Assembly (NCBI GenBank): GCA_965369835.1
Contig: CBDUSE010000001.1
Location: forward strand, 4,393 to 68,392
DNA length: 64,000 nucleotides
Source: an uncultured bacterium
GTDB lineage: Bacteria; Auribacterota; JABMQX01; JAFGEW01
Direction of reading: 5' to 3'
The notes beneath the pieces are model-generated. The model saw only the letters and a list, made by a program, of their open reading frames with translations. It searched no databases and was not told the origin of the DNA. The translations under genes were made by a program, and so were the position numbers. Positions 12,862 to 35,278 of this stretch are shown here, one piece after another; position 1 is the stretch's first letter, and every line of letters starts with the position of its first letter.

Positions 12862-13181
12862 TCCTTACCTCCCTTCGCAGCGGCGGTTCCATACGTTTGT
12901 TCGGGCCGGCACGACCCGATTTCGCAGCGAAAGTAGGTGACCGGCCTGCCCCTGTCAAGCGCGTTTTAGCGAGGAAGGGCGGTGTCCGAGGCTTTGTCCG
13001 CTTCTGACTTGAGCCACGTAATGGACGGCGTTCATGGTTGTCAGGTTTCCAGTGCCGTTCCGTGTAGCGCCGGCATCTTGCCGGCTGTCCGGTGGGCATC
13101 TTGCCCACCGAGGTGATCGGAGCGGCCGGGTACCGCGACGGCGTCCTCAAAGCGATCATCAAGCCCTGAATCCTCCGCATC

Positions 13182-13197
13182 TGGCAACGTCCTTGCT
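13182..13197 (+). promoter_or_regulatory. Sigma54 (-24/-12) promoter TGGCAA-N5-TTGCT
   Basis: GG and GC elements are exactly 10 nt apart, about 100 nt upstream of the PAS-HisKA gene. Confidence 0.5.
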
Positions 13198-14385: not shown

Positions 14386-14573
14386 TTGGCGTGTCGCGTT
14401 TTCCTACTATATTGAAAGGCCGATTCCGGGACCGGCTGCTGGTTATGAAACCTGCCGCGCGAACTTCCCTCAGTTCGTGCTCTTCATAAGTCGCTAACAA
14501 GCGGGTGGTTGCGACTGTCGCGCCGGTTGCCGTGCGCCGGGACCGATGCAGTCCGTGTTTCTATCCACATCGG

Positions 14574-14589
14574 TGGCATGTTCTTTGCA
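14574..14589 (+). promoter_or_regulatory. Sigma54 promoter TGGCAT-N5-TTGCA (near-perfect consensus)
   Basis: GG-N10-GC spacing is exact. Located 37 nt upstream of the ATG of the PseG-like gene. Confidence 0.55.
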
Positions 14590-16868: not shown

Positions 16869-16874
16869 GGGCCG

Positions 16875-17885: not shown

Positions 17886-17894
17886 GCAACGCGT

Positions 17895-18608
17895 ATGAAA
17901 GCGGTTGTGCTCGCCGGTGGCAAGGGAACGCGGCTCCGGCCCTACACGGCCGTGCTGCCGAAGCCGCTTGTGCCTGTTGGCGACACACCGATCCTCGAGA
18001 TCATCCTCTCGCAGCTCAGCCGTGCCGGTATGACCGACGTGACGATCACCGTCGGCCATCTCGCCTCGCTGATCGAGACCTTTTTCGGCGACGGCAGCCG
18101 GTTCGGTCTCCGCATCGAGTACTTCCGCGAAGAGACCCCGTTGAACACCGTCGGCTCCCTGCCGCTTATTGACGAGCTGACCGAGCCGTTCCTCGTCATG
18201 AACGGCGACGTACTGACCGATATTAATCTCGACAAGCTCGTCGCGTTTCACCGCGAGAAGCGGTGCATTGCGACGATCGCCACGGCGCCGCGCGAGCAAA
18301 AGGCGGACTTCGGCGTCGTGCGGTGGGACGGCGACACGCGGATCGTCGAGTTCCTCGAAAAACCGATGTCGCGCTATCACGTGAGCATGGGCGTGTACGT
18401 CTTCTCGCACGCCGTGCTCGAATATATTCCCTCGGGCAAGCCCTTCGGCTTTGACGAGCTGATGCGGGTGATGCTCGAGGCCGGCGAGCGGGTCTTTTCC
18501 TACCCGCACGACGGCTACTGGCTCGACTTGGGCCGGCCCGATGACTACGAACGCGCCATCGAGGATTTCGCTCGGATGCGGGAGCATTTCGTGGGAGCGC
18601 AACCATGA
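17895..18608 (+). CDS. Sugar-1-phosphate nucleotidyltransferase (RfbA/RfbF-like)
   Basis: MKAVVLAGGKGTRLRPYT...LPKPLVPV is the NTP_transferase signature. Confidence 0.8.
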   Translation: MKAVVLAGGKGTRLRPYTAVLPKPLVPVGDTPILEIILSQLSRAGMTDVTITVGHLASLIETFFGDGSRFGLRIEYFREETPLNTVGSLPLIDELTEPFLVMNGDVLTDINLDKLVAFHREKRCIATIATAPREQKADFGVVRWDGDTRIVEFLEKPMSRYHVSMGVYVFSHAVLEYIPSGKPFGFDELMRVMLEAGERVFSYPHDGYWLDLGRPDDYERAIEDFARMREHFVGAQP

Positions 18609-19786
18609 CGTGGGCGGTGCCATTGGCGGGCCTCGACTTCGATGAGGCGGAAGCGCGCGCGGTCCTCGACGTGCTCGAGAGCAAGTGGCTCACGATGGGT
18701 CCGGTGACCGAGCGCTTCGAACACGCGTTCGCCTCGGCCGTTGGCGTGCGCCACGCGGTGGCGGTCTCGAACGGCACGGCCGCCCTGCACCTCGCCTGCC
18801 GCGCGCTGGGAATTGGTCCCGGTGACGAGGTGATTGTGCCGTCGTTGACCTTCGTGGCGACGGCGAACGCGGTGGTCTACTGCGGGGCGACGCCGGTCTT
18901 TGCCGATATCACATCCGAGGACGATTGGACCGTTTCGCCAGACGATATCGAACGGCGCATTACCGATCGGACAGTGGCGATCATCGTGATGCACTACGGT
19001 GGTTACCCGTGCGATATGGCCGCGATCCTCGACGTGGCGCGCCGCCACGGCGTGCCGGTGATCGAGGACTGCGCCCACGCCCCGCTGGCGCGTCTCGATG
19101 GGCGCGTGGCCGGCACGTTCGGCGCGATCGGCTGTTTCAGCTTCTACACGAACAAAAACCTTGCGGTGGGCGAGGGCGGCATGCTGGTGACCGACGCCGC
19201 TGCGCTCGCTTCTCAAGCGCGCCTTATGCGGTGCCACGGCCTGTCGAGCGTGTGCGCCGATCGGCACCGTGGCGCCGGGCCGCTCTACGACGTGACCGAG
19301 CTTGGGTACAACTACCGGCTCGATGAGATGCGCGCGGCGATCGGGCTGGTGCAGCTCGACAAACTCGCCCGGAATAACCGGCGCCGTGGCACGCTCATGG
19401 CGCGATACCGCGAATTGATCTCGGGCATCGAGGGGGTGCGGCTCCCGTTCGCCACGCCGCGAGGCGAGCCGGCGCACCACATCTGTCCTGCGCTGCTCGA
19501 TGAGGATGTGGATCGGCAACGGTGCATCGAGGGGCTGCACGAACGCGGCATCCAGACGAGCGTGCACTACACGCCGGTTCACTTGTTCCGCTACTACCGC
19601 GAGCGGTTCGGCAGCGGCGCGGGCGAGTTGCCGCTGACCGAGGGGGTCGCGGCACGTGAGATTACGTTGCCATTACATCCGCTCCTGACCGAGCAGGAGG
19701 TGAGCGAGGTTGTCCGAGCGCTCGGGGAAGCGCTCGACGCGCGGCGGCACGCGCCGCCGCCACAGGGAGCGGTTGTTGTTGCTTGA
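18605..19786 (+). CDS. DegT/DnrJ/EryC1/StrS-family PLP-dependent sugar aminotransferase
   Basis: Matches the DegT family throughout (AVSNGTAALHLA, FSFYTNKNLAVGEGG with the PLP lysine, GYNYRLDEMRAA). ATGA overlap with the upstream gene. Confidence 0.85.
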   Translation: MTWAVPLAGLDFDEAEARAVLDVLESKWLTMGPVTERFEHAFASAVGVRHAVAVSNGTAALHLACRALGIGPGDEVIVPSLTFVATANAVVYCGATPVFADITSEDDWTVSPDDIERRITDRTVAIIVMHYGGYPCDMAAILDVARRHGVPVIEDCAHAPLARLDGRVAGTFGAIGCFSFYTNKNLAVGEGGMLVTDAAALASQARLMRCHGLSSVCADRHRGAGPLYDVTELGYNYRLDEMRAAIGLVQLDKLARNNRRRGTLMARYRELISGIEGVRLPFATPRGEPAHHICPALLDEDVDRQRCIEGLHERGIQTSVHYTPVHLFRYYRERFGSGAGELPLTEGVAAREITLPLHPLLTEQEVSEVVRALGEALDARRHAPPPQGAVVVA

Positions 19787-19955: not shown

Positions 19956-20690
19956 ATGACCACGAAGCAGGAGCGTCTCATCGTTCTTGGACGTCTCTCT
20001 TCCGTGCTCGCCCACGAGATCCGAAATCCGCTGGCCGGCATTAGTGCGGCAATACAGGTGCTCGGCGGAAAGATTGCGGAAGCGGATCCGCGGAGGAAGT
20101 ACGTCGGCATGATCCTCAAGGAGGTCGAGCGCGTCAACGACATCGTGAAGAACCTGCTCGACTTCTCGCGCGAGGGCCGGGCGTACATGATGCCGGCGCG
20201 TGTCCGCACGCTCGTCGAGCATGCGCTCGAGCAGTTCGCCCGGCAGTGCGAGCACGCCGGCATCCATGTCGAGACCGATCACGACGACGACCTGCCCGTT
20301 GTCGTGTGCGACGTGGAGCAGATGGGGCGGGTCTTTCGCAATCTCATCGCGAACGCCGTTGACGCGATGCCCCGAGGCGGCACGCTGACGGTGCGGACCG
20401 CGCATAACGCGGCGACGGGGCAGGTCGCCGTCAGCTTCGAGGACACGGGCATCGGCACCGACGTAGCGGATCTGGGCGAGCTCTTCTCACCGTTCTACAC
20501 GACCAAGACGAAGGGGAACGGGCTTGGTCTGCCCGTGGCGCTCAAGTGCATCGAGGAACATGGGGGAACGATCACCGCGCAGCGCGGGGAGCCGTGCGGA
20601 TTGACGATGGTTGTCCAGTGGCCCGTCAAGCCACTCAACGAGGCGGGCACCCCGAACAATGCAGCACAGACGACGCACCTTATCGGCTAG
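19956..20690 (+). CDS. Cytoplasmic sensor histidine kinase core (HisKA + HATPase), FlgS-like
   Basis: H-box LAHEIRNPLAGI lies about 15 aa from the N-terminus. N, G1 and G2 boxes are present (NLIANAVDAM, DTGIG, GNGLGL). No TM or sensor domain. Confidence 0.8.
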   Translation: MTTKQERLIVLGRLSSVLAHEIRNPLAGISAAIQVLGGKIAEADPRRKYVGMILKEVERVNDIVKNLLDFSREGRAYMMPARVRTLVEHALEQFARQCEHAGIHVETDHDDDLPVVVCDVEQMGRVFRNLIANAVDAMPRGGTLTVRTAHNAATGQVAVSFEDTGIGTDVADLGELFSPFYTTKTKGNGLGLPVALKCIEEHGGTITAQRGEPCGLTMVVQWPVKPLNEAGTPNNAAQTTHLIG

Positions 20691-20702
20691 ACAGGGGAGA
20701 GT

Positions 20703-22067
20703 ATGGACACGTCTATTCTTATCGTTGATGATGAAGAGGCGATTCGCCTCTCGCTGACCGAGGCGCTCAGCGACGAGGGATATACGGTCATCGCGGCCGC
20801 CTCAGGCGAGGAGGCGATCGCCCTTGTGCGCCGTAGACGCCCGGACCTTATGTTGCTTGACATGAAGCTGCCGAAAGCGAGCGGCATGGAGGTGCTCAAG
20901 CAGGCGAAGAAGATCCAGAACGACATCGTGGTGATTATCATGACCGCGTTCGCCGACGTCGCCAGCGCGGTCAAGTGCATGAAGCGCGGCGCCTACGACT
21001 ACCTGAACAAGCCGTTCAGTCTCGACGCGCTCAAGCTCGTGGTCCGCAAGGCGCTCGAGACGCTCTCGCTCAAGAAGGAGCTCTCGATCGTGCGCGAGCG
21101 CGCGCAGCGCGATTTTGAGGCCGATTTTATCATCGGTGAGAGCTCGAAGATGCGTAAGGTCTACGAATACGTCAAGCGCGTGGCCCGCAGCAACTCCTCG
21201 ACGGTGCTCGTTCAGGGCGAGAGCGGCACGGGCAAGGAGCTCATCGCGCGGGCGATCCACTACTTGAGCTTTCGGCACGACAAGATGTTCGTTGACTTCA
21301 ACTGCACGGCCGTTCCGGAGGCGCTTGTGGAGAGCGAGCTCTTCGGGTTCGAGAAGGGCGCCTTCACGGATGCGAAGCACCAGAAGACGGGCTTGTTCGA
21401 ACTGGCGGACAAGGGCACGCTGTTCCTCGACGAGATTGGCGACATGAGCTATCACCTCCAGGCGAAGCTCTTGCGGGCGCTGCAGGAGCGTTCGTTCACC
21501 CGCGTCGGTGGCATCTCCAAGATCCACGTGGACATCCGCATCATCGCCTCGACGCACCGCGACCTGAAGGCCGCGATGGCCGCTGCGAAGTTCCGCGAGG
21601 ACCTCTACTACCGACTCAACGTGGTACCGATCTCGCTGCCGCCGCTTCGCGATCGCGGCCCGGACATCCTGCTACTGGCGAAGCACTTCATTGACCGCTT
21701 CAATCGCGAGTTCAAGAAGAACGTCTACAAGATGGCGCCCGAGACAGAGCAGCTCATGCTCGGGTACCATTGGCCGGGCAATGTGCGCGAGCTGCAGAAC
21801 ACCATCGAACGGGCCATCCTGCTCGAGTGTGACGACGTGCTCTTGCCTGAGCACCTGCTGTTCGCCGAAGCTGAGACCACGCCGGCACCGGAGAGCTCGC
21901 CCGTACCAAGGGCCACCGACATGACCCTCGACGATGTTGAGAAGGAGTACATCCTCCGTGTGATCGAGGCGGTCGGCTGGAACAAGAACCGCGCGGCGAA
22001 GAAGCTCGGCATTGATCGCACCACCCTCTATACTAAGATCAAGAAGTACAGTCTCGCGCGCACGTGA
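20703..22067 (+). CDS. Sigma54-dependent response regulator (NtrC family; REC + AAA+ sigma54-activator + Fis-type HTH), FlgR/FleR-like
   Basis: Receiver domain, GESGTGKE Walker A, the GAFTGA-type loop (EKGAFTDA), ESELFGFEKGAFT, and a C-terminal HTH (NKNRAAKKLGIDRTTLYTKI). Confidence 0.9.
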   Translation: MDTSILIVDDEEAIRLSLTEALSDEGYTVIAAASGEEAIALVRRRRPDLMLLDMKLPKASGMEVLKQAKKIQNDIVVIIMTAFADVASAVKCMKRGAYDYLNKPFSLDALKLVVRKALETLSLKKELSIVRERAQRDFEADFIIGESSKMRKVYEYVKRVARSNSSTVLVQGESGTGKELIARAIHYLSFRHDKMFVDFNCTAVPEALVESELFGFEKGAFTDAKHQKTGLFELADKGTLFLDEIGDMSYHLQAKLLRALQERSFTRVGGISKIHVDIRIIASTHRDLKAAMAAAKFREDLYYRLNVVPISLPPLRDRGPDILLLAKHFIDRFNREFKKNVYKMAPETEQLMLGYHWPGNVRELQNTIERAILLECDDVLLPEHLLFAEAETTPAPESSPVPRATDMTLDDVEKEYILRVIEAVGWNKNRAAKKLGIDRTTLYTKIKKYSLART

Positions 22068-22266
22068 TGTCCCGAATCTCGACGGGTTGTCGGAATTGCC
22101 GACAAGCGTGCGACCGTTCAATCACTGAACGTACGCTGGCCGGTTGGACCGACGGTTCTCGTCGAAGAATGCCGCCGGAGTGACCGGTCTCTCTTTCCTG
22201 TGTTGCCCCACCCCATCGCGTCTGCGCTCGGCGTGTGCGTTCGGTCCGAGTGTGTCGCTTGGTGCT

Positions 22267-22282
22267 TGGTACAGAAGTTGCT
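22267..22282 (+). promoter_or_regulatory. Sigma54 promoter TGGTAC-N5-TTGCT
   Basis: GG-N10-GC spacing is exact. The -12 element lies 38 nt upstream of the lipoprotein ATG at 22320. An adjacent 6-bp-stem palindrome GTTGCTCAAAGCAAC overlaps it. Confidence 0.5.
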
Positions 22283-22319
22283 CAAAGCAACCTGCGTAGG
22301 TTCATGTATCAAGGAAAAG

Positions 22320-22760
22320 ATGATGCGAGCTGCCTGGATCGTCGTAGGGATGCTGATCGCCGCAATGCTGGTTGCAATGATGGGGTGCCGGTTCGGCACT
22401 CGCACGCCGACGCGCGAGCAGACTCGCCCGTACGATCTCGTGCCGCAGTCGGGCTATCTTGCCGACGGACCGACGGTGAGTCCGGACTACGCGGCGCCGC
22501 CCGCGTCCGAGGATGACGACAGCGGCACCAACGAAGCGGCGTATCGGGCGGCGATTCAGAAGGACCTCGTGCGCATCAATGTGCTGCTCACGGAGAACGA
22601 ACGGCTGCGTCAGGAGCTTGCGGCCACGAAGCTGATGCTCGACGAGGCCCGAGACGAGATCGAGAAGCTTCGAAAGGCGATCACCACGCTCGAGGCGAAG
22701 CTCGAGCGCGTGAAGGCACGAGCTAAACGCCGCGGGGGAAACGTCCCGGGCGAGGAGTAG
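22320..22760 (+). CDS. Lipoprotein with a coiled-coil C-terminal domain
   Basis: Signal peptide with lipobox (LVAMMGC), then an Ala/Pro-rich linker and a heptad-like ERLRQELAATKLMLDEARDEIEKLRKAITTLEAKLERVKARAKR. Confidence 0.5.
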   Translation: MMRAAWIVVGMLIAAMLVAMMGCRFGTRTPTREQTRPYDLVPQSGYLADGPTVSPDYAAPPASEDDDSGTNEAAYRAAIQKDLVRINVLLTENERLRQELAATKLMLDEARDEIEKLRKAITTLEAKLERVKARAKRRGGNVPGEE

Positions 22761-22850
22761 CAACCTCCGGGAGCCCGAGCGGTTTTGCGCAGCAACGAAG
22801 CCTCCTCCCAGCGAAGCGTCTGTGAACCTGGGCGACGAATCGAGCGGGCA

Positions 22851-24359
22851 ATGAAGGGATCAATCCTGATCGTTGATGACGAGGCCACTCTGGCCGAGAC
22901 GATCCGTGACTATTTCGTCGCGGATGGCCTCGACGCTGCGTGCGTACAGTCGGCCGAAGAGGCCCTGGAGTTCGCTCGTGCGCGGCAGTTCCATGTGGTC
23001 GTCACCGACATGAAGATGCCCGGGATGAGCGGCATTGATTTGCTGCGCGCGCTCGGGGAAGCGCCGGACCCGCCGTCGGTCATCCTAATGACCGCCTACG
23101 GGACAATGGAATCCACTGTTGAAGCATTCCGGCTCGGGCTGTTCGATTTTCTGCAGAAACCGGTCTCACTCGACGAGCTGAGCAAGAGCGTCGAGCGCGC
23201 ACTCAACGCGCGCGCCTCGCGGGTCAACGACACCCCGCTGCCGGTGCCTCTACACGTGTTGCGCGAGCGCTCGCGCCGTGTCGGTGCCGTGCGGGCCGAG
23301 GTGGCGGGCGACTCCTCGGCCGCCCAGGCGACGGCGGTCTGGCGGCTGCGCGCGCTTGATCGGCAGCGGGCGGGCTTTGTGTGGGCACACGTGGCACCAG
23401 GCAGTCGGTTCGCGGTCGCCGCTCGCTTGGTCATCAGGACGCTGGCGGACGCGCTTGACCTCGGTGCGCCCCGCGAAGCGCTCGAGACGATTATGCGTCA
23501 TTTGACGGACCTCGACTGTGGCTCCACGTTGCGCGCGCTTGCTGTCGGCGTGGTTGAGTCGGAACCGAGCCGTCGCCTCTATGGCGCCGCGCTTGGCCAT
23601 GCCGGGCTCTTCCGCCTCGACGCGAGCGGTTCGGCTCCCGAGTCCCTCGCGGGCGGGCCGCGGGACGCCACGCGCACGTGGGAGGCGAGCCTGGCGCCGG
23701 AAGATGTATTGCTGCTCGCCGACCCGCGCTTGGTGTCGGCGGCGGCGGAGCGCTGGTCCGACGTGCTCGCGGCGACCAGGAAGCTGATTGCGGAGGGCGA
23801 GCCGAACCCGGCGCGGCGGGCGCTCGCGATGGTGCCCGAAGTCGCCGGCGAAGCGCCGGTCGTGATCGCGCTTCGCCTCGGCAAAGCGATCCGGCCCGAC
23901 GGGCTGACGCATGTGCGCGTCTCATCGAACCGGGCAAGTCTCGGTCACGTGCGCGACGTGGCGGAGCGGTTCGCGCTTGGCGTGCCGCTCAGTGGGCAGG
24001 CGGCTCACGAGGTGGTGACCGCAGTTCAGGAAGCGGTGCTTAACTGCATGCGCTGGGCCTACGCGGGCGGGGAGGGCCCCGTTTGCCTAACGCTCTCGTG
24101 CGAGGGCGGGCGCATGCGGGCGAGCGTGCGCGACCGCGGTCTCGGCTTCGATGTGGGCGAGACCTTCCGCCGCACGAGCGATCCGTCACAGGACCCGCTG
24201 CGGCGCTCGGGCCGTGGCCTGATGCTGATGCACCGGCTCGCGGACCGGTTCGAACTGACTTCAAGACCGGGCCGCGGCACGAACGTCGTGTTGGAAAAGG
24301 ACTTCGACGCGCCGTTCACCGACGGCGCCGACGAGCGAGAGGCCGAGCAGGTGCGATGA
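22851..24359 (+). CDS. Fusion protein: REC receiver, then a PP2C/SpoIIE-like (apparently degenerate) phosphatase domain, then an RsbW/SpoIIAB-like anti-sigma serine kinase (HATPase_c_2)
   Basis: N-terminal ILIVDDE...VVVTDMKMPGMSG...LQKP is the receiver. The middle region has an RsbU-like layout (LYGAALGHAGLFRL, DVLLLADPRL) but lacks the canonical GD.SGHG metal site. The C-terminus (VTAVQEAVLNCMRWAY...GRGLMLMHRLADRFEL) is RsbW-like. Confidence 0.55.
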   Translation: MKGSILIVDDEATLAETIRDYFVADGLDAACVQSAEEALEFARARQFHVVVTDMKMPGMSGIDLLRALGEAPDPPSVILMTAYGTMESTVEAFRLGLFDFLQKPVSLDELSKSVERALNARASRVNDTPLPVPLHVLRERSRRVGAVRAEVAGDSSAAQATAVWRLRALDRQRAGFVWAHVAPGSRFAVAARLVIRTLADALDLGAPREALETIMRHLTDLDCGSTLRALAVGVVESEPSRRLYGAALGHAGLFRLDASGSAPESLAGGPRDATRTWEASLAPEDVLLLADPRLVSAAAERWSDVLAATRKLIAEGEPNPARRALAMVPEVAGEAPVVIALRLGKAIRPDGLTHVRVSSNRASLGHVRDVAERFALGVPLSGQAAHEVVTAVQEAVLNCMRWAYAGGEGPVCLTLSCEGGRMRASVRDRGLGFDVGETFRRTSDPSQDPLRRSGRGLMLMHRLADRFELTSRPGRGTNVVLEKDFDAPFTDGADEREAEQVR

Positions 24360-24745
24360 ATCGAAGCGCGTTAGGGCACGACGATAAGCCGGTGGTGGTA
24401 GCAGTCATAGACGAGCTGGTGTTCGAGTCGGCCGAGCCGGCGGAGCAACTGCACGAGCTGCTCCGGGCGGGCACGTGCCGCATCGTGCTCGACTTGCGGC
24501 AGGCGACGTATGTCTCGGGCGTTGGTCTTGGCCTTGTGGCGGACGTGGCGAAGCAGGCGCGGCGAGGCGGCGGCGACGTGAAGCTCGTCGTGCACGGCTC
24601 CGAGGTGCGCCGCGTGTTCGAGCTCGGCGAGCTCGATTCGCTACTCGAGTTCTACGATGACATCGAGAGCGCGTGCAACGCCTTCACCGACTCCGTCGGC
24701 GAGGTGGAGCGCACGCTCTTGTGGCGGCAGTTTGACGATGAGTGA
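24356..24745 (+). CDS. STAS-domain anti-sigma-factor antagonist (SpoIIAA/RsbV-like)
   Basis: 129 aa with STAS pattern (VVVAVIDELVFESA...RIVLDLRQATYVSGVGLGLVADVAKQARRGGGDVKLV). The ATGA start overlaps the kinase stop. Confidence 0.7.
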   Translation: MNRSALGHDDKPVVVAVIDELVFESAEPAEQLHELLRAGTCRIVLDLRQATYVSGVGLGLVADVAKQARRGGGDVKLVVHGSEVRRVFELGELDSLLEFYDDIESACNAFTDSVGEVERTLLWRQFDDE

Positions 24746-25520
24746 GACACAAGCAGACAACACCGACGCGCCGGCACAAGTCACTCAGGCGCCCGCGCAA
24801 GTTGGCGGTGGCACACCGGTCGAGGTGATGCCGCTGGAGGCGGCTGAACTGGCCGCCGGCGCGCGGCAGCGTCGTCGCAGGCTTGTGCTGTATTTCGCCG
24901 CGCCCGCGATCGTGATCGGTCTCGTAATCACCGCGACGCAGGTGAAGCTGGGCGGGCGCTCGGGGGCGAGGTCGCCGGTTGTGCGCGACTGGGAATCGGG
25001 CATGGCACTGATCGAAACAGGGCGAATATCGAAGGGGCTCGAAACGCTCGAGAACGTGGTGACGCAGCTTCCGAAAGGGCCGGAACGCATCCGGGCGTAC
25101 GTGCGCCTCGCTGAGGTCTACTGCATGCTCGGTGAGAACGAGCCGCACTACCTGAACTCAGCTATCCGCCACTATGCGACCGTGCTTGATTCGGCCGGCG
25201 ATGCCGCGTCGCTCGATGGCGCTGTGACGGTTGACGAGTTGCTCTACGAGACCGGCCGCTGCTTTGTCGCCCTCGGCTCGTACGAAACGGCGCTCGAGTT
25301 TTTCGAGCAGATTGACGTCGAGTTCCCTGCGAGCCTCTTCAGGCCGCAGGCGCGACTTGAGATCGGTGAGAGCTACCTGGCGATCGGCCAGTACCAGCGG
25401 GCGCGCCGGGTGCTTGCCGAGGTGGCCGAGACGTACCGGGGCGATCCACTTGGCGAGAAGGCCTTCTTCCGTTTCGCCGATTCCTTCGACGAGCAGGCCG
25501 GATTATTGAGGGGAGAGTGA
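24738..25520 (+). CDS. Membrane-anchored TPR-repeat protein
   Basis: One TM helix (LVLYFAAPAIVIGLVITAT) followed by TPR-like repeats. Confidence 0.5.
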   Translation: MSETQADNTDAPAQVTQAPAQVGGGTPVEVMPLEAAELAAGARQRRRRLVLYFAAPAIVIGLVITATQVKLGGRSGARSPVVRDWESGMALIETGRISKGLETLENVVTQLPKGPERIRAYVRLAEVYCMLGENEPHYLNSAIRHYATVLDSAGDAASLDGAVTVDELLYETGRCFVALGSYETALEFFEQIDVEFPASLFRPQARLEIGESYLAIGQYQRARRVLAEVAETYRGDPLGEKAFFRFADSFDEQAGLLRGE

Positions 25521-27385
25521 TGGTGCCGCCGCGCGCGCGTAGCAGGGATCGAACGCGGGTCACCGCGATGCTGATCGCGGCGGCGTTTCTGTGCGCACTT
25601 GCACCACCGGCTCAAGCCGGGCCGTTGCAGTTGGGCGGCGAAGGGCCGCTGCTGCCGCGTTCAAGCGGGCCACGCAGTTCGCGCACCCTGGTGCCGACCG
25701 CCGAGGAGACCGCCGTACCGGCTGAGCGTTCCGAGGTGCTGAAGGCAGCGGGCACCGAGGACGAGCGCGAGGGAGCGGCGCCCGAGGAAGCCACGAGCAC
25801 GCTGCGCGCGTTCCTCAACGAGATGCTCGAGCAGGGTGCCCTGTGGAAGGTGCTCCCGATCCACATGGGCGTCGCGGCGCGCCGCACCTATCTCGAGGAC
25901 CGCAGCATCCGCAGCTATCGTGAAGGCATTTTCCGGTTTCCGGACTCACCGTTCGTGCCGGCGGCGCACTTGAGGATCGCCTCGATCTACGCGCGGCGCG
26001 GCGACCGCCGGGCGGCGCTCCGCGAGTACGCGACGCTGCTCGAGCGTTTCCCGGACCACGACAGCGCCGACGACGCGCGCTTGGCAAGGGCCCAGATGAT
26101 GTTTGCGGCAGGCGACTACGCCGGCGCCAGGGACGAAGGCTACCTGTTGATGGATAGGTACACCGAGAGCGTGCTCGTGGCGGACGCGTACCTGCTTGTG
26201 GCCCACGCGCACGAGCTGCTGGGCGAATTCGAGGAGGGCCAACTGGCCTACATGCACGTGCTGGAGCGAACGGCGGCCGGCGACGAGCGGTCCGTTCGGG
26301 CGTGCGAGGGCCTCGCCTCGCTCGAGCTGGCCGCAGGCAACGCCGAGAGGGGGATCAAGATCTACAAGCAGTTGCTGGAGGAAGCACCGACCCAGGCCGC
26401 GCGGGACGCCCGCGAGTTCAAGCTCGCGAGCGTTTACCTCGACGTGGGCGAGACGGTGCGTGCGCGCACGCTGTTCCGGCGAATTCTCCGCGGCTACGAG
26501 CTCAACGCCTACCGCGCCGCCGCCGCTTTTCTACTCGCGGACTCCTACTACGCCGACGGGGAAATGCCCCAGGCGGCGCAATACTACACGGGCGCCTTGC
26601 TCGACTTTCCGACCTTCGAGGAGCGCATTCCGGCGCTGTTCCGCGCGGCGGACGCCTACAAGGGGCTCGTGCTCTACGAGGAGGCGCTTGCGATGGTGTG
26701 CCAGGTTGCGAAGGCGCGCGATCCGGCGCCGACGCCGCACCAGCGCGCCCGGGCCAAGCTCATCGCGGGGGAGATCCTATTCTTCAACGAGCAGTATGGC
26801 GCGGCACTCGAGGAACTGTACGGGGCGCTCGTCGGGGAGCTGACGACGTCCGAGCGAGAACGGGCGGCCTACCGCATCGGGCAATGCTACTACCGCAGCG
26901 GGTACTACAACGAGGCGCTCGAGGCCTTTGACGCCGCGCTCGGGCAAGCGCCACAGCACGAGCTCGCTTTCGAGGCGTTGCAGGCGGTGGCGGACTGCTA
27001 CGAGAAGAAGGGATGGCTCGACGACGCGCGGCAGCGCTACAAGGCGATCCTCGATGCGGCAAGCGAGGACGACTCGCCCGAGCAGCTCGCCGCGCGATCG
27101 AGCGTCGTCTTCAGGCTGCTCAATACCTATGACGACCGCGGCCTGTACCAGGAGGAGCTCAACGCCGCGAGGGAGCTCCTCGAGCGCAAGTACGCCTTTC
27201 TCGACGAGACGCGGCTGCTCTACCGGATGGCGCGTGCCTACGAGCGTTTGAATAACCCGGTCGAGGCCGAGACGCTCTACGCGCAGGTGCGCTCGCGATT
27301 TCCCGGCAGCACGTGGGCGCAGCAGGCCGATGTCAAGATACGGCATATGCGGATGCTCAAGCAGATCAAGGCGTTATCGAACTAG
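25520..27385 (+). CDS. Secreted multi-TPR repeat protein
   Basis: Signal peptide MLIAAAFLCALAPPAQAG, then more than 12 TPR-like units (AEAYLLVAHAHELLGEFEEGQLAY and similar). The start overlaps the upstream stop. Confidence 0.6.
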   Translation: MVPPRARSRDRTRVTAMLIAAAFLCALAPPAQAGPLQLGGEGPLLPRSSGPRSSRTLVPTAEETAVPAERSEVLKAAGTEDEREGAAPEEATSTLRAFLNEMLEQGALWKVLPIHMGVAARRTYLEDRSIRSYREGIFRFPDSPFVPAAHLRIASIYARRGDRRAALREYATLLERFPDHDSADDARLARAQMMFAAGDYAGARDEGYLLMDRYTESVLVADAYLLVAHAHELLGEFEEGQLAYMHVLERTAAGDERSVRACEGLASLELAAGNAERGIKIYKQLLEEAPTQAARDAREFKLASVYLDVGETVRARTLFRRILRGYELNAYRAAAAFLLADSYYADGEMPQAAQYYTGALLDFPTFEERIPALFRAADAYKGLVLYEEALAMVCQVAKARDPAPTPHQRARAKLIAGEILFFNEQYGAALEELYGALVGELTTSERERAAYRIGQCYYRSGYYNEALEAFDAALGQAPQHELAFEALQAVADCYEKKGWLDDARQRYKAILDAASEDDSPEQLAARSSVVFRLLNTYDDRGLYQEELNAARELLERKYAFLDETRLLYRMARAYERLNNPVEAETLYAQVRSRFPGSTWAQQADVKIRHMRMLKQIKALSN

Positions 27386-27410
27386 ACATGCTCAAGGAGG
27401 TGCGTGAGCG

Positions 27411-27845
27411 ATGGAGAACACGCTGCTCAAAACCCTGCACGACGGGATCCGAGAGGAGATTGCGCACTATGAGCAGCTCCTCGATCTCACGACGCGGGAG
27501 CACGAGATCCTCGCCGAGGAGAGCTACAACACAGAGCTAGCGACGCTGGCGGCCAAGAAGCTCAGGATCATGCGCGAGATCAACGACCTGACCATGCGCA
27601 TCGGCCCGCTCAAGGTGCGCTGGAAGCTCGAGGAGCCGCGCGACGAGGCGAACGAGGATGCCGGGGAGATTTCGCCGCTGCTCGAGGAGCTCGGTGCGCT
27701 GCTCGAGAAGATCCTCGACGTAGACGAGGGGAACCAGCGGATCCTTTCGCGCCTCATCGGGGCCACGGACACCACCGAGGCGAGCAAGAGCCTCAACACG
27801 GCCTCCGCCGCGCGCGCCTATGACCGGACGACGCCAAAGGCATAG
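27411..27845 (+). CDS. FlgN-like putative flagellar export chaperone
   Basis: 144 aa helical protein with FlgN-like heptad pattern (HYEQLLDLTTREHEILAE...LAAKKLRIMREINDL). Confidence 0.35.
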   Translation: MENTLLKTLHDGIREEIAHYEQLLDLTTREHEILAEESYNTELATLAAKKLRIMREINDLTMRIGPLKVRWKLEEPRDEANEDAGEISPLLEELGALLEKILDVDEGNQRILSRLIGATDTTEASKSLNTASAARAYDRTTPKA

Positions 27846-27881
27846 CGCCGGTTCTCGCGCATCGGGCGGAGCAGGAGGACA

Positions 27882-29180
27882 ATGATGGAGAGCACCGTTG
27901 CGTCCGAACAGGCCACGGGTGAGGGCATGTTCGCTGACGCGCTCACGGAACATGGCGTAGGTGGGGCCGGTGATATCGAGCGCCTGGCCGAGGCGTTCGA
28001 GCGCTTCACGAGGAAAGCCGCGAAGCTCCGGGGCGCCTATAACAAGCTCAAGCGACACGTGGGAGCGGTCAACCGCGAGCTCGAGGAAAAGAACGTCGAG
28101 CTACGGCACAAGATCGAGGAGCTCGACTCGACCCGCACGTACCTGAATAACGTGCTCGAGAGCATGGGAAGCGGCGTGATCGCCGTTGATGCGCTCGGAC
28201 GGATCACCACATTCAACGCGGCGGCCGAGCAGATGACCGGCTACAGGCGCAACGAGGTGCTCGGGCGCCCCTACGGCGAGGTCTTCCCCGAGCGGGACGA
28301 CGGCCCGCCGGCGATCCTTCTGTCACTCGAGACGCACAGGCCCCACATCGTCAAGGAGCGCGCCCTGCACCGCCACGACGGTCGGGCCGTACCAGTCGGC
28401 GTGAGCAGCTCGCCGTTTCGCGACTCGAACGGCGCTCTCTCCGGCGCGCTCGAGATCTTCCACGATCTTACTGAGGTGAAGTTGCTCGAAGAGCGCGTGC
28501 GTTGCGCCGATCGGCTCGCTGCGCTCGGTCAGATGGCAGCGACGGTGGCGCACGAGATCCGCAACCCGCTCGGCGGCATCGAGGGGTTCGCGGCGCTGCT
28601 CGAGCGCGATCTGGCGGACCGGCCCGACAAGCGCGAGATGGCGAGCCAGATCGTCCAGGGCGCCCGGGCGCTCAACCGCATCGTTGCCTGCCTGCTTGAT
28701 TTCACGCGCCCGGTCGCGCTCAAGCTGCGCTGGGTGAGTCTGGGCGAGATTGCCGACGCGGCGCTCGCGGTCGTCGAGCAGGAGATGGGCGCGCAGGGCC
28801 CGCGGGTCACCATCGTTCGGGACTACGCCGAGGAGGACATGGCGATCGTTGACCCGGAACAGATGTACGGGGTGGTGCTCAACCTTGCGCGCAACGCGTG
28901 GCAAGCGATGCACGAGGACGGCGAGATCATCGTGAAAATCGGGAGCGACGAGAACACCGTGACGCTCAGCGTGCGCGACACCGGATGCGGCATGACCGAG
29001 GAGGTCCGTGCAAAGCTCTTCTCACCGTTCTTCACGACGAAAGAGACCGGCACGGGCCTGGGACTGAGCATCGTGCGCAAGATTGTGCTCGCGCACGGCG
29101 GCACCATCGAGGTAGAGAGCGCGCCGGGTGCGGGCACCACGTTCACCGTCAAGATCCTTCGGCGCCTGCGAGCGGCCTGA
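27882..29180 (+). CDS. PAS-domain sensor histidine kinase (FlgS/NtrB-like)
   Basis: PAS segment (GSGVIAVDALGRITTFNAAAEQMTGY), H-box VAHEIRNPLGGI, and an HATPase region (RNAWQAM, DTGCGM, GTGLGL). Confidence 0.85.
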   Translation: MMESTVASEQATGEGMFADALTEHGVGGAGDIERLAEAFERFTRKAAKLRGAYNKLKRHVGAVNRELEEKNVELRHKIEELDSTRTYLNNVLESMGSGVIAVDALGRITTFNAAAEQMTGYRRNEVLGRPYGEVFPERDDGPPAILLSLETHRPHIVKERALHRHDGRAVPVGVSSSPFRDSNGALSGALEIFHDLTEVKLLEERVRCADRLAALGQMAATVAHEIRNPLGGIEGFAALLERDLADRPDKREMASQIVQGARALNRIVACLLDFTRPVALKLRWVSLGEIADAALAVVEQEMGAQGPRVTIVRDYAEEDMAIVDPEQMYGVVLNLARNAWQAMHEDGEIIVKIGSDENTVTLSVRDTGCGMTEEVRAKLFSPFFTTKETGTGLGLSIVRKIVLAHGGTIEVESAPGAGTTFTVKILRRLRAA

Positions 29181-29237
29181 GCACGAGACAGCAGGGACAA
29201 CACCAGAGACCACTGGAACACAGAGAGAGGCAAGAGG

Positions 29238-30629
29238 ATGGCCATCCAACACGTCCTCGTCGTTGATGACGAGCCGCTGATCCGCAAGTTCCTCGTCGAG
29301 ACGCTGAAGCGAATGGGCTTTGCCGTCCAGGATGCGTCGGACGGCGCGCAGGCGCTGCGAAAGATCAAGTCCGAAACGTTCGACCTGATCTTTACCGATA
29401 TCAAGATGCCGAGCCTGAGCGGCATGGAGCTGCTGCGCAAGGTGCGCGAGGTGTCGCCCGAGTCGGTCATCGTGATGATGACCGCTTACGCGACCGTCGA
29501 AAGCGCGGTCGAGGCGATGAAGATGGGCGCCTTCGACTACATCATCAAGCCGTTCTCGCCCGACCAGATTGAGATGGTCACCCGTCGGGCGACCGAGCGG
29601 CAGAGCCTCATCGAGGAGAACCAGTACCTGCGCAGCGAGATCCTCAAGGAGTACGGGTTCGGCGAGATCATCGGCAACGCTCCGGTGATGCACAGCATCT
29701 TTGAGGTGATCAAGAAGGTGGCCAACAGCCGGGCCACCATGCTTGTGCAGGGCGAGAGCGGCACCGGCAAGGAGCTGGCCGCGCGAGCGATCCATTTCAG
29801 CAGCGTACGCTCGAACGCACCGTTCATCAAGGTCAATTGCGCCGCTCTGCCGGAGAACCTGCTCGAGAGCGAGCTGTTCGGCCACGAGAAGGGTGCGTTC
29901 ACGGGCGCTGTGACGCGCCGCTTGGGCCGCTTCGAGCTCGCGCACCGCGGGACCCTGTTGCTCGACGAGGTGAGCGAGATCCCGCTCGGGCTCCAGGCGA
30001 AGCTGCTCCGGGTGCTCCAGGAGCGCGAGTTCGAGCGCGTCGGTGGCACCCGGCCGGTCAAGGTTGACGTGCGCATCGTGGCGACGACGAACCGGAACCT
30101 CGATGAGGAGATCGAGGCGAAGCGGTTTCGCGAGGACCTGTTCTTCCGGCTCAACGTCATCCCGATCACGCTGCCGCCACTGCGTGAGCGAGACGGCGAC
30201 GTGCCGTTGCTCGCGCAGCATTTCGTTGATCGCTACTGCCGCGAGAACAACCGGTCGCATAAGCAGATCGTGCCCGAAGCGCTCGAGATGATGTGCCACT
30301 ACGCATGGCCGGGCAACGTGCGCGAGCTGCAGAACGTGATCGAGCGCGCGGTGGTGCTCGATGCCGACGAGGTGATCCGGCCCGAGCACCTCGCGCTTCG
30401 CCCGTCCAGTTCGAGCGAAAGCGACAGCGACGAGATCGTTGATGCGGTCGGCAGGACGGTAGCGGAGATGGAGCGCCGGCTGATTCTCAAGACACTCCAG
30501 GCGCTCGAAGGGAACCGCGGCAGGACGGCCGAGATGCTCCAGATCAGCGTGCGCACGTTGCGCAACAAGCTTAACCAATACCGGGTGCAGGGACAGTTCG
30601 CTGACTCGAAGCCGGCCTGTGCGTCATGA
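29238..30629 (+). CDS. Sigma54-dependent response regulator (NtrC family), second FlgR/FleR-like paralog
   Basis: REC domain, GESGTGKE, ESELFGHEKGAFTGA, and a C-terminal HTH (NRGRTAEMLQISVRTLRNKL). Confidence 0.9.
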   Translation: MAIQHVLVVDDEPLIRKFLVETLKRMGFAVQDASDGAQALRKIKSETFDLIFTDIKMPSLSGMELLRKVREVSPESVIVMMTAYATVESAVEAMKMGAFDYIIKPFSPDQIEMVTRRATERQSLIEENQYLRSEILKEYGFGEIIGNAPVMHSIFEVIKKVANSRATMLVQGESGTGKELAARAIHFSSVRSNAPFIKVNCAALPENLLESELFGHEKGAFTGAVTRRLGRFELAHRGTLLLDEVSEIPLGLQAKLLRVLQEREFERVGGTRPVKVDVRIVATTNRNLDEEIEAKRFREDLFFRLNVIPITLPPLRERDGDVPLLAQHFVDRYCRENNRSHKQIVPEALEMMCHYAWPGNVRELQNVIERAVVLDADEVIRPEHLALRPSSSSESDSDEIVDAVGRTVAEMERRLILKTLQALEGNRGRTAEMLQISVRTLRNKLNQYRVQGQFADSKPACAS

Positions 30630-30672: not shown

Positions 30673-30688
30673 TGGCATAGATATTGCT
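30673..30688 (+). promoter_or_regulatory. Sigma54 promoter TGGCAT-N5-TTGCT upstream of flgB
   Basis: Exact GG-N10-GC spacing, about 60 nt upstream of the flgB start. Confidence 0.55.
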
Positions 30689-30747: not shown

Positions 30748-31113
30748 GTGAAGACACTGTTCCAGCCGGAAGCGCTCAAGCTGTACGAGAAGATGTTGGA
30801 TTTCGCGGCGCTTCGCCACAAGGTGATCGCCAACAACATCGCCAACATCAACACGCCGAACTTCCGGCGCTCGGATGTCGAGTTCGCCGACGAGCTGGAC
30901 CGCGTGTTGCGCGACAAGGGCATCAAGGGCGTCAAGGACCTGCGCTTTCGCATCACCAAGCCAAACACCACCGCGTTCCGTAACGACAACAACAACGTGA
31001 GCATTGATACCGAGATGGCGGTGCTCGCCGAGAACGCCATCCTTTACCAGGTTTATGCACAGCTCATGGCGCGGCGGTTCCGCAAGCTCCACGACATTAT
31101 CAAGGAGGCCTAA
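30748..31113 (+). CDS. flgB: Flagellar basal-body rod protein FlgB
   Basis: Rod N-terminal motif VIANNIANINTPNFRR. Probable GTG start at 30748; the ORF track ATG is at 30703. Confidence 0.85.
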   Translation: MKTLFQPEALKLYEKMLDFAALRHKVIANNIANINTPNFRRSDVEFADELDRVLRDKGIKGVKDLRFRITKPNTTAFRNDNNNVSIDTEMAVLAENAILYQVYAQLMARRFRKLHDIIKEA

Positions 31114-31115
31114 CG

Positions 31116-31547
31116 ATGGGCGAAGGCATCTTCAGCTCGTTCGACATCAGCGCCTCGGGCATGACGGCCGAACGGCTGCGCATGAACGTGATCGCTTTCA
31201 ACATCGCCAACGCCAACACGACCCGCAGTGCCGACGGCGGGCCGTATCGGAAGCGCTACGTCGTGTTCGAGGAAGTGCTCGCCGATGCGCAGCGCAACCT
31301 CGACGGCTTGATGCGTGACGTCGGCTCGGGCGTTCGTGTCGTCGAGGTCAGTCGCGACAACGAACCGGGCCCGAAGCGCTACCTCCCGGGCCACCCGGAC
31401 GCCGACGAGGACGGCATGGTCGAGATGCCGAACGTCAATCCGGTGATGGAGATGCTCGACATGATTAACGCGTCGCGCGGGTATGAGGCCAACGTCATGG
31501 CGATCAGCGCGGCGAAGCAGATGATCCTCAAGGCGCTTGAGATCTAG
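31116..31547 (+). CDS. flgC: Flagellar basal-body rod protein FlgC
   Basis: SGMTAERLRMNVIAFNIANANTT and a C-terminal GYEANVMAISAAKQM. Confidence 0.9.
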   Translation: MGEGIFSSFDISASGMTAERLRMNVIAFNIANANTTRSADGGPYRKRYVVFEEVLADAQRNLDGLMRDVGSGVRVVEVSRDNEPGPKRYLPGHPDADEDGMVEMPNVNPVMEMLDMINASRGYEANVMAISAAKQMILKALEI

Positions 31548-31579
31548 CCGCGGCACACGCGCAGCGTGGGAATGGAGCA

Positions 31580-31879
31580 ATGACAGAGATTTCGAAGATA
31601 GGGCGACACCTTCCACTGCTCGATCCGGCGCAGGCGGGCCGCGTGCAGCCGCCGGCGGGCGGCTCCTTCAAGGACGTGCTCGGCGGCTTCCTCGAGGAGG
31701 TCAACGACCTGCAGCTCGACATGGATGAGACGATCAAGAAGTTCGCTGCGGGCGAGATCAAGGACGTGCATCAGGTCATGATCGCCGCCGAGGAAGCAGA
31801 CATCGCCTTCCAACTTATGATGAAGATCCGCAGCAAGCTGCTCAAGGCGTACGAAGAAGTGATGAAGATGCAGGTGTAG
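31580..31879 (+). CDS. fliE: Flagellar hook-basal body protein FliE
   Basis: 99 aa, FliE pattern (FKDVLGGFLEEVNDLQ...VMIAAEEADIAFQLMMKIRSKLLKAYEEVMKM). Confidence 0.85.
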   Translation: MTEISKIGRHLPLLDPAQAGRVQPPAGGSFKDVLGGFLEEVNDLQLDMDETIKKFAAGEIKDVHQVMIAAEEADIAFQLMMKIRSKLLKAYEEVMKMQV

Positions 31880-31901
31880 GCCGGACCGGAGAAGCACGGG
31901 C

Positions 31902-33524: not shown

Positions 33525-33570
33525 CACAGCGGGGCTCCGACGACACACCACGCCCCGGGAGATCAACGAG

Positions 33571-35272: not shown

Positions 35273-35278
35273 CGCCTT

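Follow-up and report, generated by a model that had tools for sequence, protein, structure and literature searches.

The 64-kb window analysed here, the whole stretch taken from contig CBDUSE010000001.1 of an uncultured Auribacterota bacterium, carries a single flagellar super-cluster that runs on the plus strand from ~13 kb to ~56 kb. Within it lie two pairs of a histidine kinase (HK) and an NtrC-type enhancer-binding protein (EBP), HK1/EBP1 and HK2/EBP2, together with six sigma-54-type promoters and a short dyad, here called UAS-A as a putative upstream activating sequence (UAS), which is found upstream of three of these promoters, including the one that heads the operon encoding HK2 and EBP2. 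On balance we lean towards a two-tier cascade whose wiring, deduced from sequence, would run from HK1/EBP1 to HK2/EBP2. Gene boundaries were taken from Pfam and NCBIfam scans and from gene calls on a metagenome contig identical to the window (L081), and the main coordinates are collected in Table 1.

Conservation was assessed in related loci, referred to by their handles. Five contigs carry the full module (L083-L086 and L106; 58-86% identity in EBP2, 38-69% GC), to which we added an Auribacterota metagenome-assembled genome (MAG; L088), while the pseG region was compared in L089-L092 and the fliK and fliO regions in L103-L105.

Sigma-54 promoters of the cluster

At the GC content of the window (65%), the consensus TGGYAY-N5-TTGCW was matched four times, compared with 0.08 expected by chance. 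A position weight matrix for the -24/-12 element returned four sites of at least 17 bits (0.06 expected) and six of at least 14 bits (0.67 expected), and the enrichment of high-scoring sites is ~50- to 70-fold. The excess over chance on which a first-pass annotation of this DNA had staked its promoters is thus borne out by a scan within the window. All six promoters are intergenic, on the plus strand and 39-102 nt ahead of start codons (39-61 nt for the four strong ones), an extended core TGGYAYAGnnnTTGCTCA is common to the four flagellar promoters, and the promoters are kept across orthologous loci that range from 38 to 69% GC.

Three of the sites named in that annotation, at 14574, 22267 and 30673, are correctly oriented intergenic promoters conserved in orthologous loci. 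The pseG promoter is kept 58 nt ahead of the gene in L089, L090, L091 and L092. The 16-mer at 22267 is identical in all five loci aligned, including L086 (55% GC), and an equivalent site also lies 3' of the EBP1 orthologue in L088 and L106. The flgB promoter is kept in L083-L086 and L106, with an analogous site between an EBP gene and flgB/flgC in L004, L008 and L046. The proposed fliK promoter at 37917 (TGGAACGGCAAATGCG) was rejected, as its -12 element is poor (ATGC) and nothing similar aligned in the distant relative L086. A conserved promoter was instead found at 37959; it is kept in L084, L085, L103 and L104, and its counterparts are CGGTATACTAATTGCT, aligned at the same place in L086 and L105, and the equivalent TGGTACATTTATTGCA in L106. 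A further promoter at 46939, ahead of fliO and kept in L103, L104 and L105, had been missed. The site at 13182 is present and weak (14.1 bits); a near-identical copy at the same position occurs only in L092, the sole relative with the downstream gene pair, and the site is absent from L089 and L090. The earlier count of at least five promoters therefore survives, with six found, one originally misplaced and one overlooked, while the five sites then intended span ~24.8 kb rather than falling inside 20 kb.

Other candidates were discarded: GTTGCGCAAC upstream of fliK is not conserved in the alignment, the motif GGCARWWTCTTCCC gave four matches compared with 1.7 expected, which is not significant, and a 15.1-bit site at 61565, inside a glycosyltransferase gene, is probably a chance match. 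At the flgB and fliO promoters alike, the 3' end of the -24/-12 element is followed after exactly 19 nt by GGCAAAA (30707 and 46973); this heptamer occurs only seven times in 64 kb (a further one is listed at 46885), is kept in close relatives only, and may function in the leader or as a downstream activator site. The rejected site at 37917 contains GGCAAAT (37923). TAGCATnnTTCTTGCTCA, at 44337-44352, looks like the sigma-54 promoters of this cluster apart from AG replacing GG and is kept in two relatives (L103 8069, L104 8075), but it is coding sequence, lying in the first fliL gene.

An upstream dyad shared by three promoters

UAS-A has the form (T)GTCGG-N5-CCGAC(A), is often present in tandem and lies 100-180 bp upstream of the pseG promoter, the promoter that follows EBP1 and the fliO promoter. 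The perfect copy 3' of EBP1 is conserved in L083, L084 and L085, and its counterparts at the same place read TGTAGC..CCAACA in L086, TGTAGA-GAAGG-TCTACA in L106 and TGTCCG..TCTACA in L088. The arm changes are not compensatory, and a protein-binding DNA site is therefore favoured over an RNA hairpin. The fliO dyad was found in a mismatch pattern search (nine matches compared with 3.1 expected at three mismatches or fewer), and its tandem copies are kept in L103, L104 (a perfect GTCGG-GAAAC-CCGAC) and L105. At pseG, the dyad was recognized from the alignment of upstream regions and is perfect in L092 (TGTCGGATTTCCCGACA), near-perfect in L091 and degenerate in L089. UAS-A consistently adjoins EBP1 at the 3' end of the gene, also in L088 and L106, and no UAS-A-like dyads were found in L004 and L008, loci that lack an EBP1-type gene.

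Further palindromes were noted. A second one, with the sequence given in Table 1, follows the perfect UAS-A dyad, is conserved in L083-L085 only and occurs once in the window. Tandem dyads at 13069-13110 (GCCGGCA-TCT-TGCCGGC and GTGGGCA-TCT-TGCCCAC, ~21 bp apart) lie ~90-113 nt before the weak 13182 site, without conservation in L092. We also dismissed TGCGCA-CGT-TGCGCA, a palindrome located 123 nt ahead of the flgB promoter, as a UAS candidate, since this sequence codes for the helix-turn-helix (HTH) motif VRTLRN and synonymous substitutions disrupt it in relatives.

Two ancient kinase-activator pairs

Pfam analysis confirmed the two kinase-activator pairs at 19956-22067 and 27882-30629, as well as the first-pass description of their components. 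The sensor-less kinase HK1 consists of HisKA and HATPase_c only: it begins directly with the dimerization and histidine phosphotransfer (DHp) domain, with its H-box HEIRNPL at residue 20, and has no transmembrane (TM) segment, in keeping with a cytoplasmic location. Orthologues of 236-248 amino acids occupy the equivalent position in L083-L086 and L106. Without a sensing part, HK1 would be either constitutive or controlled by a partner. HK2, a PAS kinase, combines one PAS domain, HisKA and HATPase_c with a coiled coil at its N terminus; it likewise has no TM segment and is predicted to be cytoplasmic. Both regulators are full NtrC-type activators (REC, Sigma54_activat, AAA_lid and HTH_8), and their place in the NtrC family is clear from PF00158 matches with E = 3e-70 (EBP1) and 1e-71 (EBP2), accompanied in both by PF00072 and PF02954. 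Their alignment displays GESGTGKE, DE and the loop GAFTDA (EBP1) or GAFTGA (EBP2), and the acceptor Asp sits in LLDMKLP (EBP1) or FTDIKMP (EBP2). The EBP1 receiver is canonical (PF00072, 105 bits) and the kinase gene lies 13 nt upstream.

The pairs are paralogous, as had been proposed, and the paralogues are old. EBP1 and EBP2 share 46% identity, a usual level for two members of the NtrC family, and HK1 and HK2 share 34% over the kinase core. Each activator is nearer to proteins from other phyla (52-58% identity) than to the other (EBP2 homologues among the matches listed in a search of genome contigs were at most 55% identical), and a quick neighbour-joining tree places the two on separate branches, each with its own syntenic orthologues and EBP1 on a GAFTDA branch. 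This argues that they are ancient paralogues from different branches of the NtrC family, with no recent local duplication.

GAFTDA is found in EBP1 and every syntenic orthologue, while EBP2 orthologues have GAFTGA, with GAFTSA and GAFTNA variants. In an exhaustive HMMER scan, the loop position is Asp in 61 of the 150 best representatives and the loop reads GAFTGA in 63; this replaced an inflated count from a word-indexed search, in which 116 of 120 homologues had appeared to carry GAFTDA. The motif also occurs in non-flagellar EBPs, such as Desulfovibrio vulgaris DVU2106 and a Geobacter pickeringii protein adjoining genes for a HAMP kinase and cytochromes. GAFTDA is a functional variant of GAFTGA and has no specificity for flagella.

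The pairs had been designated FlgS/FlgR-type, which does not hold as a family assignment. On the NCBIfam FlgR model (NF049963), EBP1 and EBP2 score 333.8 and 358.2 bits compared with a cut-off of 750, and on FlbD 323 and 418 bits (cut-off 750). The best match of both is AtoC, below its cut-off (489 and 551 bits compared with 714); both score higher on the AtoC, NtrC and PEP-CTERM regulator models than on FlgR, and no equivalog cut-off is reached. HTH_8 is intact in both activators and HK2 resembles FlrB/FleS. The likeness to FlgSR comes down to the GAFTDA loop of EBP1 and the cytoplasmic location of HK1. Among solved structures, the AAA+ domains of both are nearest Aquifex NtrC4 and NtrC1. As similarity scores rather than reciprocal best hits, the AAA+ domain of EBP2 gave 261 bits with FlrC and 272 with FlrA compared with 360 with Aquifex NtrC4; EBP1 gave 213 with FlrC and 237 with FlrA, and the overall range across FlrA, FlrC and FleQ was 213-241 for EBP1 compared with 260-272 for EBP2.

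A regulatory operon with a predicted partner switch

The genes at 22320-30629 are tightly packed, with gaps of 90 nt or less, and HK2 and EBP2 lie at the distal end of this 8.3-kb operon. We found no conserved promoter for it other than the sigma-54 promoter directly 3' of EBP1. Given this packing and the single conserved promoter, expression of HK2 and EBP2 should depend on sigma-54 and on the EBP that binds the dyad.

The operon also encodes a probable partner switch at 22851-24745. REC, HATPase_c_2 and STAS domains were detected in this gene pair, while PP2C (SpoIIE) was detected by Pfam only in the L088 and L106 orthologues and not in the window protein. The latter aligns over its whole length with the orthologue from L088, its central domain corresponding to the SpoIIE domain, and has lost the residues aligned to the GDVGEKG motif, which indicates that its PP2C domain is degenerate. 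We predict that the pair is an HsbR/HsbA-like partner switch. FlgM was not found within the window, and FliA could therefore be the target of the switch. FliA itself (sigma-28; 55271-56080) scores 258 bits on the NCBIfam FliA/WhiG model (cut-off 189.6), and flhF and flhG lie at 52916-54983.

Synteny and age of the module

The order HK1-EBP1-[promoter]-lipoprotein-REC/PP2C/RsbW-STAS-TPR-TPR-(FlgN)-HK2-EBP2-[promoter]-flgB (TPR, tetratricopeptide repeat) is shared by L083-L086 and L106, and by L088 minus flgB. In L088 and L106, which have different glycan genes upstream, pair 1 is still part of the flagellar module. A PAS kinase and EBP followed by a sigma-54 site and flgB/flgC also occur in two Nitrospinota MAGs (L004 and L008), and the same unit lies before flgB in a 'Proteobacteria' MAG (L046) that carries a TPR gene and two EBP genes. 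A PAS kinase and EBP also adjoin FlgN or FliE in MAGs with the labels Chlamydiae and Planctomycetota. In L004 and L046 a sigma-54 site precedes the operon encoding the TPR protein, PAS kinase and EBP, which makes the lower pair itself sigma-54 dependent there. The L046 locus (4285-11353) reads EBP, sigma-54 site, a 951-amino-acid TPR protein, PAS kinase, EBP, sigma-54 site and flgB, with GAFTGA in both EBPs and no partner switch, and this simpler module suggests TPR-HK-EBP as the ancestral core.

Since the module is syntenic across relatives of 38-69% GC and in the Auribacterota MAG, the dual-pair arrangement looks, from these alignments, old and vertically maintained, with no recent hybrid origin. 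The first-pass annotation had described epsilonproteobacterial control grafted onto a Bacillus-like fla operon ending in fliA. The gene order was confirmed, while the flgB...fliA order is common to all these lineages and has no Firmicute specificity; the graft finds no support in a unit of EBP, sigma-54 site and flgB that recurs in Nitrospinota and 'Proteobacteria'. This suggests that an EBP gene before flgB is an old arrangement and no epsilonproteobacterial speciality. NCBI taxonomy places Auribacterota within the Planctomycetes-Verrucomicrobia-Chlamydiae (PVC) group, among named genomes a 'Verrucomicrobia bacterium' MAG comes closest, and the source bacterium probably belongs to the PVC group.

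A proposed two-tier cascade and its alternatives

In the cascade that we favour, HK1 would phosphorylate EBP1, and EBP1~P would bind the dyad and, with sigma-54 RNA polymerase, open a first tier composed of the sugar operon (of flagellin-glycan type), the regulatory operon and the fliOPQR-flhBA-flhFG-fliA operon. The regulatory operon would supply the partner switch, two envelope TPR proteins, FlgN and HK2/EBP2, and the fliO-fliA operon the export gate, placement factors and sigma-28. HK2, a PAS kinase like FlrB/FleS, would next phosphorylate EBP2, and EBP2~P would open a second tier consisting of flgB-fliJ (rod, MS ring, rotor, ATPase) and fliK-fliN (hook, stator, switch); FliA, perhaps under modulation by the partner switch, would then drive late genes located elsewhere. 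The dyad is assigned to EBP1 because it adjoins the 3' end of EBP1, because it is absent where an EBP1-type gene is lacking, and because a sigma-70-like element (TTGAGG-N17-TATGAT) aligns before HK1 in relatives, in support of EBP1 at the top of the hierarchy. FlhF and FlhG co-occur with flagellar two-component systems here, like in a polar flagellar programme. An earlier proposal that the activators split the gene classes or control the glycan cluster fits the distribution of UAS-A, present at pseG, after EBP1 and at fliO and not conserved at flgB or fliK; which class is early and which late is a prediction from the wiring above.

Several observations weigh against this cascade. UAS-A at pseG is degenerate in the window itself, no conserved non-coding UAS was found at the flgB or fliK promoters by pattern search and alignments, and a UAS-A-like dyad lies inside flgB at 30875, also in L083, where it is uninterpretable because it is coding sequence. 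Covariation between the HTH domains and the UAS assigns the dyad to neither EBP1 nor EBP2, since the recognition helices of both HTH_8 domains are invariant among orthologues. In the window itself, the sigma-70-like element ahead of HK1 is weak, and HK1/EBP1 could be transcribed by read-through from the pseG promoter, in which case EBP1 would be autoregulated. No rpoN gene was among the Pfam and NCBIfam matches within the 64-kb window, and, unlike in Vibrio and Pseudomonas, the MS-ring and rotor genes share an operon with the rod genes.

The same parts could be wired differently. EBP2 might bind UAS-A, which would give positive autoregulation as well as control of pseG and fliO, with flgB and fliK left to EBP1; or both activators might act on all flagellar promoters, perhaps as mixed oligomers like those of FleQ and FleT in Rhodobacter. 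We regard this as unlikely, even though HTH_8 is intact in both activators, either of which may bind UAS-A, and the extended promoter core is common to all four flagellar promoters; EBP2 also lies directly upstream of flgB, yet its own operon starts at the UAS-A promoter. The constant position of UAS-A beside the 3' end of EBP1 and its absence from L004 and L008 speak for EBP1, and EBP2 acting alone on its own operon would need another starter of expression. That pair 1 mainly regulates the adjacent sugar and envelope genes, so that only HK2/EBP2 is truly flagellar and the link of pair 1 is one of co-location, seems to us quite improbable. HK1/EBP1 does lie directly 3' of a pseG...degT operon bearing UAS-A and a sigma-54 promoter, and the nearest named homologues of EBP1 include non-flagellar ones such as that of Geobacter pickeringii, with a GAFTDA loop that is not specific to flagella. 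On the other hand, UAS-A is also upstream of fliO...fliA and of the operon with FlgN, HK2 and EBP2, and pair 1 is fixed in the flagellar module even beside different glycan genes.

That the promoter-like sites are chance matches, and the pairs metabolic regulators of generic AtoC/NtrC type whose proximity to flagellar genes is accidental, is consistent with the below-cut-off AtoC match of both activators and with the AtoC label that the Joint Genome Institute annotation gives to the activators of relatives. It conflicts with the enrichment of the sites, the strong ones being intergenic and strand-matched to genes, and with the persistence of sites and synteny across 38-69% GC and several phyla, and these conservation data effectively refute it. 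A more ambitious proposal, which we consider doubtful, is that the conserved block is an undescribed type of flagellar master switch in several uncultured PVC-group and neighbouring lineages, in which the envelope TPR proteins, one membrane-bound and one periplasmic, and the partner switch may report assembly or envelope state to HK2/EBP2 and sigma-28, and may replace FlrA/FleQ or FlhDC, and FlgM. The overall control scheme is already known from Vibrio, Pseudomonas and Campylobacter, from which the module differs in detail.

Comparison with known flagellar hierarchies

Two sigma-54 activators in series, as proposed here, are found in Vibrio cholerae (FlrA to FlrBC) and Pseudomonas aeruginosa (FleQ to FleSR) (PMC3930126, PMC7064773). 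As for FlrBC and FleSR, the lower activator would belong to a PAS-kinase/EBP pair whose own operon is sigma-54 dependent; FlhF and FlhG are present, rod and hook genes lie behind sigma-54 promoters and, as in Vibrio, fliA and export genes would fall in the upper tier. In the polar programme, FlhF/FlhG are coupled with a two-component system associated with the flagellum, and its kinases are either of PAS type (FlrB, FleS) or of FlgS type (PMC7064773). By the features set out in that work, HK2/EBP2 sides with FlrB/FlrC and FleS/FleR, being a cytoplasmic PAS kinase and a response-regulator EBP accompanied by FlhF/FlhG. EBP1 does not correspond to FlrA/FleQ, which are orphan activators with a degenerate receiver, as it is a response regulator of phosphorylatable type with a canonical receiver and its own adjacent, sensor-less kinase. 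Also unlike Vibrio and Pseudomonas, the operon of the lower pair also encodes the partner switch and TPR proteins, the genes are gathered in one fla-type super-cluster, and the AAA+ domains are nearer Aquifex NtrC1/NtrC4 than FlrA, FlrC or FleQ.

Campylobacter jejuni and Helicobacter pylori likewise use a cytoplasmic kinase and a sigma-54 activator, FlgS-FlgR, for rod and hook genes (PMC3760246, PMC3162934). Francke et al. reported the G5-to-D variant (GAFTDA) for epsilonproteobacterial FlgR (PMC3162934), and EBP1, unlike EBP2, shares it. Campylobacterota have one FlgS-FlgR pair compared with two pairs here, and FlgS has an N-terminal sensing region, through which the MS ring/rotor/export-apparatus checkpoint activates the kinase, whereas HK1 is without any N-terminal region. 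FlgR activates transcription independently of enhancers, and in C. jejuni its DNA-binding domain is dispensable. H. pylori FlgR has no DNA-binding domain (PMC3162934), in contrast to the HTH_8 domains kept in both EBPs here.

Outside the Gammaproteobacteria, D. vulgaris has a flagellar sigma-54 regulon with two EBPs, as here, namely the FlrA-like DVU2894 (GAFTHA) and the two-component DVU1063 (PMC4641369). It differs in that DVU2894 is one-component with a yGTCA-N6-TGACr motif and in that the genes are dispersed over the genome (PMC4641369). Many flagellar sigma-54 promoters of D. vulgaris have no detectable upstream UAS, and DVU1063 sites lie downstream of promoters (PMC4641369). It is possible, by analogy, that these downstream sites parallel the UAS-less flgB and fliK promoters. 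A Geobacter homologue of EBP1 (L087) was considered as FgrM-like and rejected, as its context is not flagellar. By description, FgrM may be likened to the module as a master flagellar regulator that is a response-regulator EBP; Ueki et al. (2012) reportedly described it as such, with the kinases GHK3 and GHK4 in a multi-step phosphorelay that includes an N-terminal-receiver protein. A Geobacter study presents FgrM as an RpoN-dependent EBP required for flagella (PMC8844916).

The predicted partner switch resembles HsbR-HsbA of P. aeruginosa and CrsR-CrsA of Shewanella, in which a protein with REC, PP2C and GHKL kinase/anti-sigma domains is followed by a STAS antagonist (PMC6482189). In Pseudomonas, such switches act on motility via FlgM and FliA, and they also act on RpoS (PMC6482189). 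Unlike these, the pair here is embedded in a sigma-54-dependent flagellar operon and its PP2C domain is degenerate.

Cluster layout and neighbouring genes

Table 1. Promoters, palindromes and genes of the flagellar super-cluster (window coordinates)
Feature	Position	Strand	Details
Weak sigma-54-like promoter	13182-13197	+	TGGCAACGTCCTTGCT; 14.1 bits; 102 nt before ATG at 13298
Accessory pair	13298-14385	+	PAS/DHp-like gene 13298-13996, stand-alone receiver 13993-14385 (Pfam)
UAS-A, degenerate copy	14391-14409		183 nt before pseG promoter; from pseG upstream alignment
Sigma-54 promoter, pseG-like gene	14574-14589	+	TGGCATGTTCTTTGCA; 18.6 bits
Sugar-modification operon	14632-19786	+	PseG-like, ATP-grasp L-amino-acid ligase, 4,6-dehydratase, nucleotidyltransferase, DegT aminotransferase (Pfam; synteny L089/L092)
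HK1	19956-20690	+	Cytoplasmic histidine kinase without sensor domain
EBP1	20703-22067	+	REC-AAA+-HTH_8 sigma-54 activator, GAFTDA loop (Pfam)
UAS-A, weaker copy	22067-22085		20 bp upstream of perfect dyad
UAS-A, perfect dyad	22087-22105		TTGTCGG-AATTG-CCGACAA; 180 nt before 22267 promoter; conserved L083/L084/L085
Second palindrome	22114-22132		cCGTTCA-ATCAC-TGAACGT; 9 nt after main dyad
Sigma-54 promoter, lipoprotein gene/regulatory operon	22267-22282	+	TGGTACAGAAGTTGCT; 17.3 bits
Regulatory operon	22320-30629	+	Lipoprotein to EBP2 (Pfam/NCBIfam, L081 gene calls)
Lipoprotein with coiled coil	22320-22760	+	
REC + degenerate PP2C + RsbW-like kinase	22851-24359	+	
STAS protein	24356-24745	+	
TPR protein, membrane-anchored	24738-25520	+	
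TPR protein, secreted (signal peptide)	25517-27385	+	
FlgN	27411-27845	+	
HK2	27882-29180	+	Coiled coil + PAS + HisKA + HATPase_c
EBP2	29238-30629	+	REC-AAA+-HTH_8, architecture as EBP1
Sigma-54 promoter, flgB	30673-30688	+	TGGCATAGATATTGCT; 18.2 bits; 61 nt before GTG at 30748
flgB flgC fliE fliF fliG fliH fliI fliJ + ylxF-like gene (211 amino acids)	30748-37751	+	Pfam, L081 gene calls
Sigma-54 promoter, fliK	37959-37974	+	GGGTACACAACTTGCT; 55 nt before start at 38028
fliK flgD flgE flbD motA motB fliL fliL fliM fliN	38028-46824	+	Pfam, gene calls L103-L105
UAS-A-like dyad	46838		TCGTCGC-GAAAC-TCGACAA; 101 nt before fliO promoter
UAS-A-like dyad, second copy	46868 (element ends 46886)		GTATCGC-ATTTC-TCGACGG; 71 nt before fliO promoter
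Sigma-54 promoter, fliO	46939-46954	+	TGGTATAGGACTTGCT; 17.3 bits; 61 nt before ATG at 47014
fliO fliP fliQ fliR flhB flhA flhF flhG, membrane protein (93 amino acids), fliA	47014-56080	+	Pfam; equal-length gene calls on L103

One gene of the sugar operon encodes a PseG-like enzyme that falls just short of the NCBIfam PseG cut-off (146 bits compared with 153.6); the others encode an ATP-grasp L-amino-acid ligase and enzymes of the dTDP-sugar type (dehydratase, transferase and aminotransferase). The combination points to a sugar decorated with an amino acid as the product, plausibly used in flagellin glycosylation under sigma-54 control.

Upstream of it, the first protein of the accessory pair (13298-13996) has PAS and DHp-like domains and no ATPase domain, and its phospho-acceptor His is replaced by Gln (AAQEMNQPL); AAQEM(N/S)QPL is kept in L092. 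Not all relatives have the pair, which is absent from L089 and L090. It may inhibit HK1 or HK2 or serve as their phosphate sink; more speculatively, the DHp-only pseudo-kinase and the stand-alone receiver are candidate partners controlling HK1. Just ahead of the 13182 site, 13100-13181 is the 3' remnant (..YRDGVLKAIIKP*) of a gene like that of a Zn-alcohol dehydrogenase (ADH), which is intact in L092, and we read it as a deletion scar. In L092, a long inverted repeat at 4290-4395 (AAAATAGGGACAGGCACCTATTTT ... AAAATAGGTGCCTGTCCCTATTTT), absent from the window, separates the ADH gene from the sigma-54-like site; it may represent a terminator or a small mobile element.

On the minus strand, 9558-12020 encodes an 820-amino-acid major facilitator superfamily transporter fused to C-terminal HEAT/PBS-lyase repeats, which is kept beside the cluster in L089 and L092. 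At the other end, two small conserved open reading frames without a Pfam match flank fliA: 54964-55245 (93 amino acids, two TM segments and a charged tail) and 56129-56449 (~106 amino acids, highly charged), with frames of like size at matching places in L103-L105. Rfam gave no matches, a sigma-28 promoter scan nothing convincing, and a generic sigma-70 and terminator scan no informative result.

Implications

To our knowledge, sigma-54 flagellar hierarchies have been dissected almost solely in Proteobacteria and Campylobacterota. With six promoters, one dyad motif and two regulons, the module described here provides a testable map of such a hierarchy. The same logic, in which an activator cascade is accompanied by FlhF/FlhG and sigma-28 comes last, would be retained, at fixed synteny, in uncultured lineages that bear the labels Verrucomicrobia and Auribacterota, and also in metagenome contigs of 38-69% GC. 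It would be joined there by features absent from descriptions of the model systems, namely a two-component top tier, an embedded HsbR/HsbA-type partner switch and envelope TPR proteins co-transcribed with the lower kinase.

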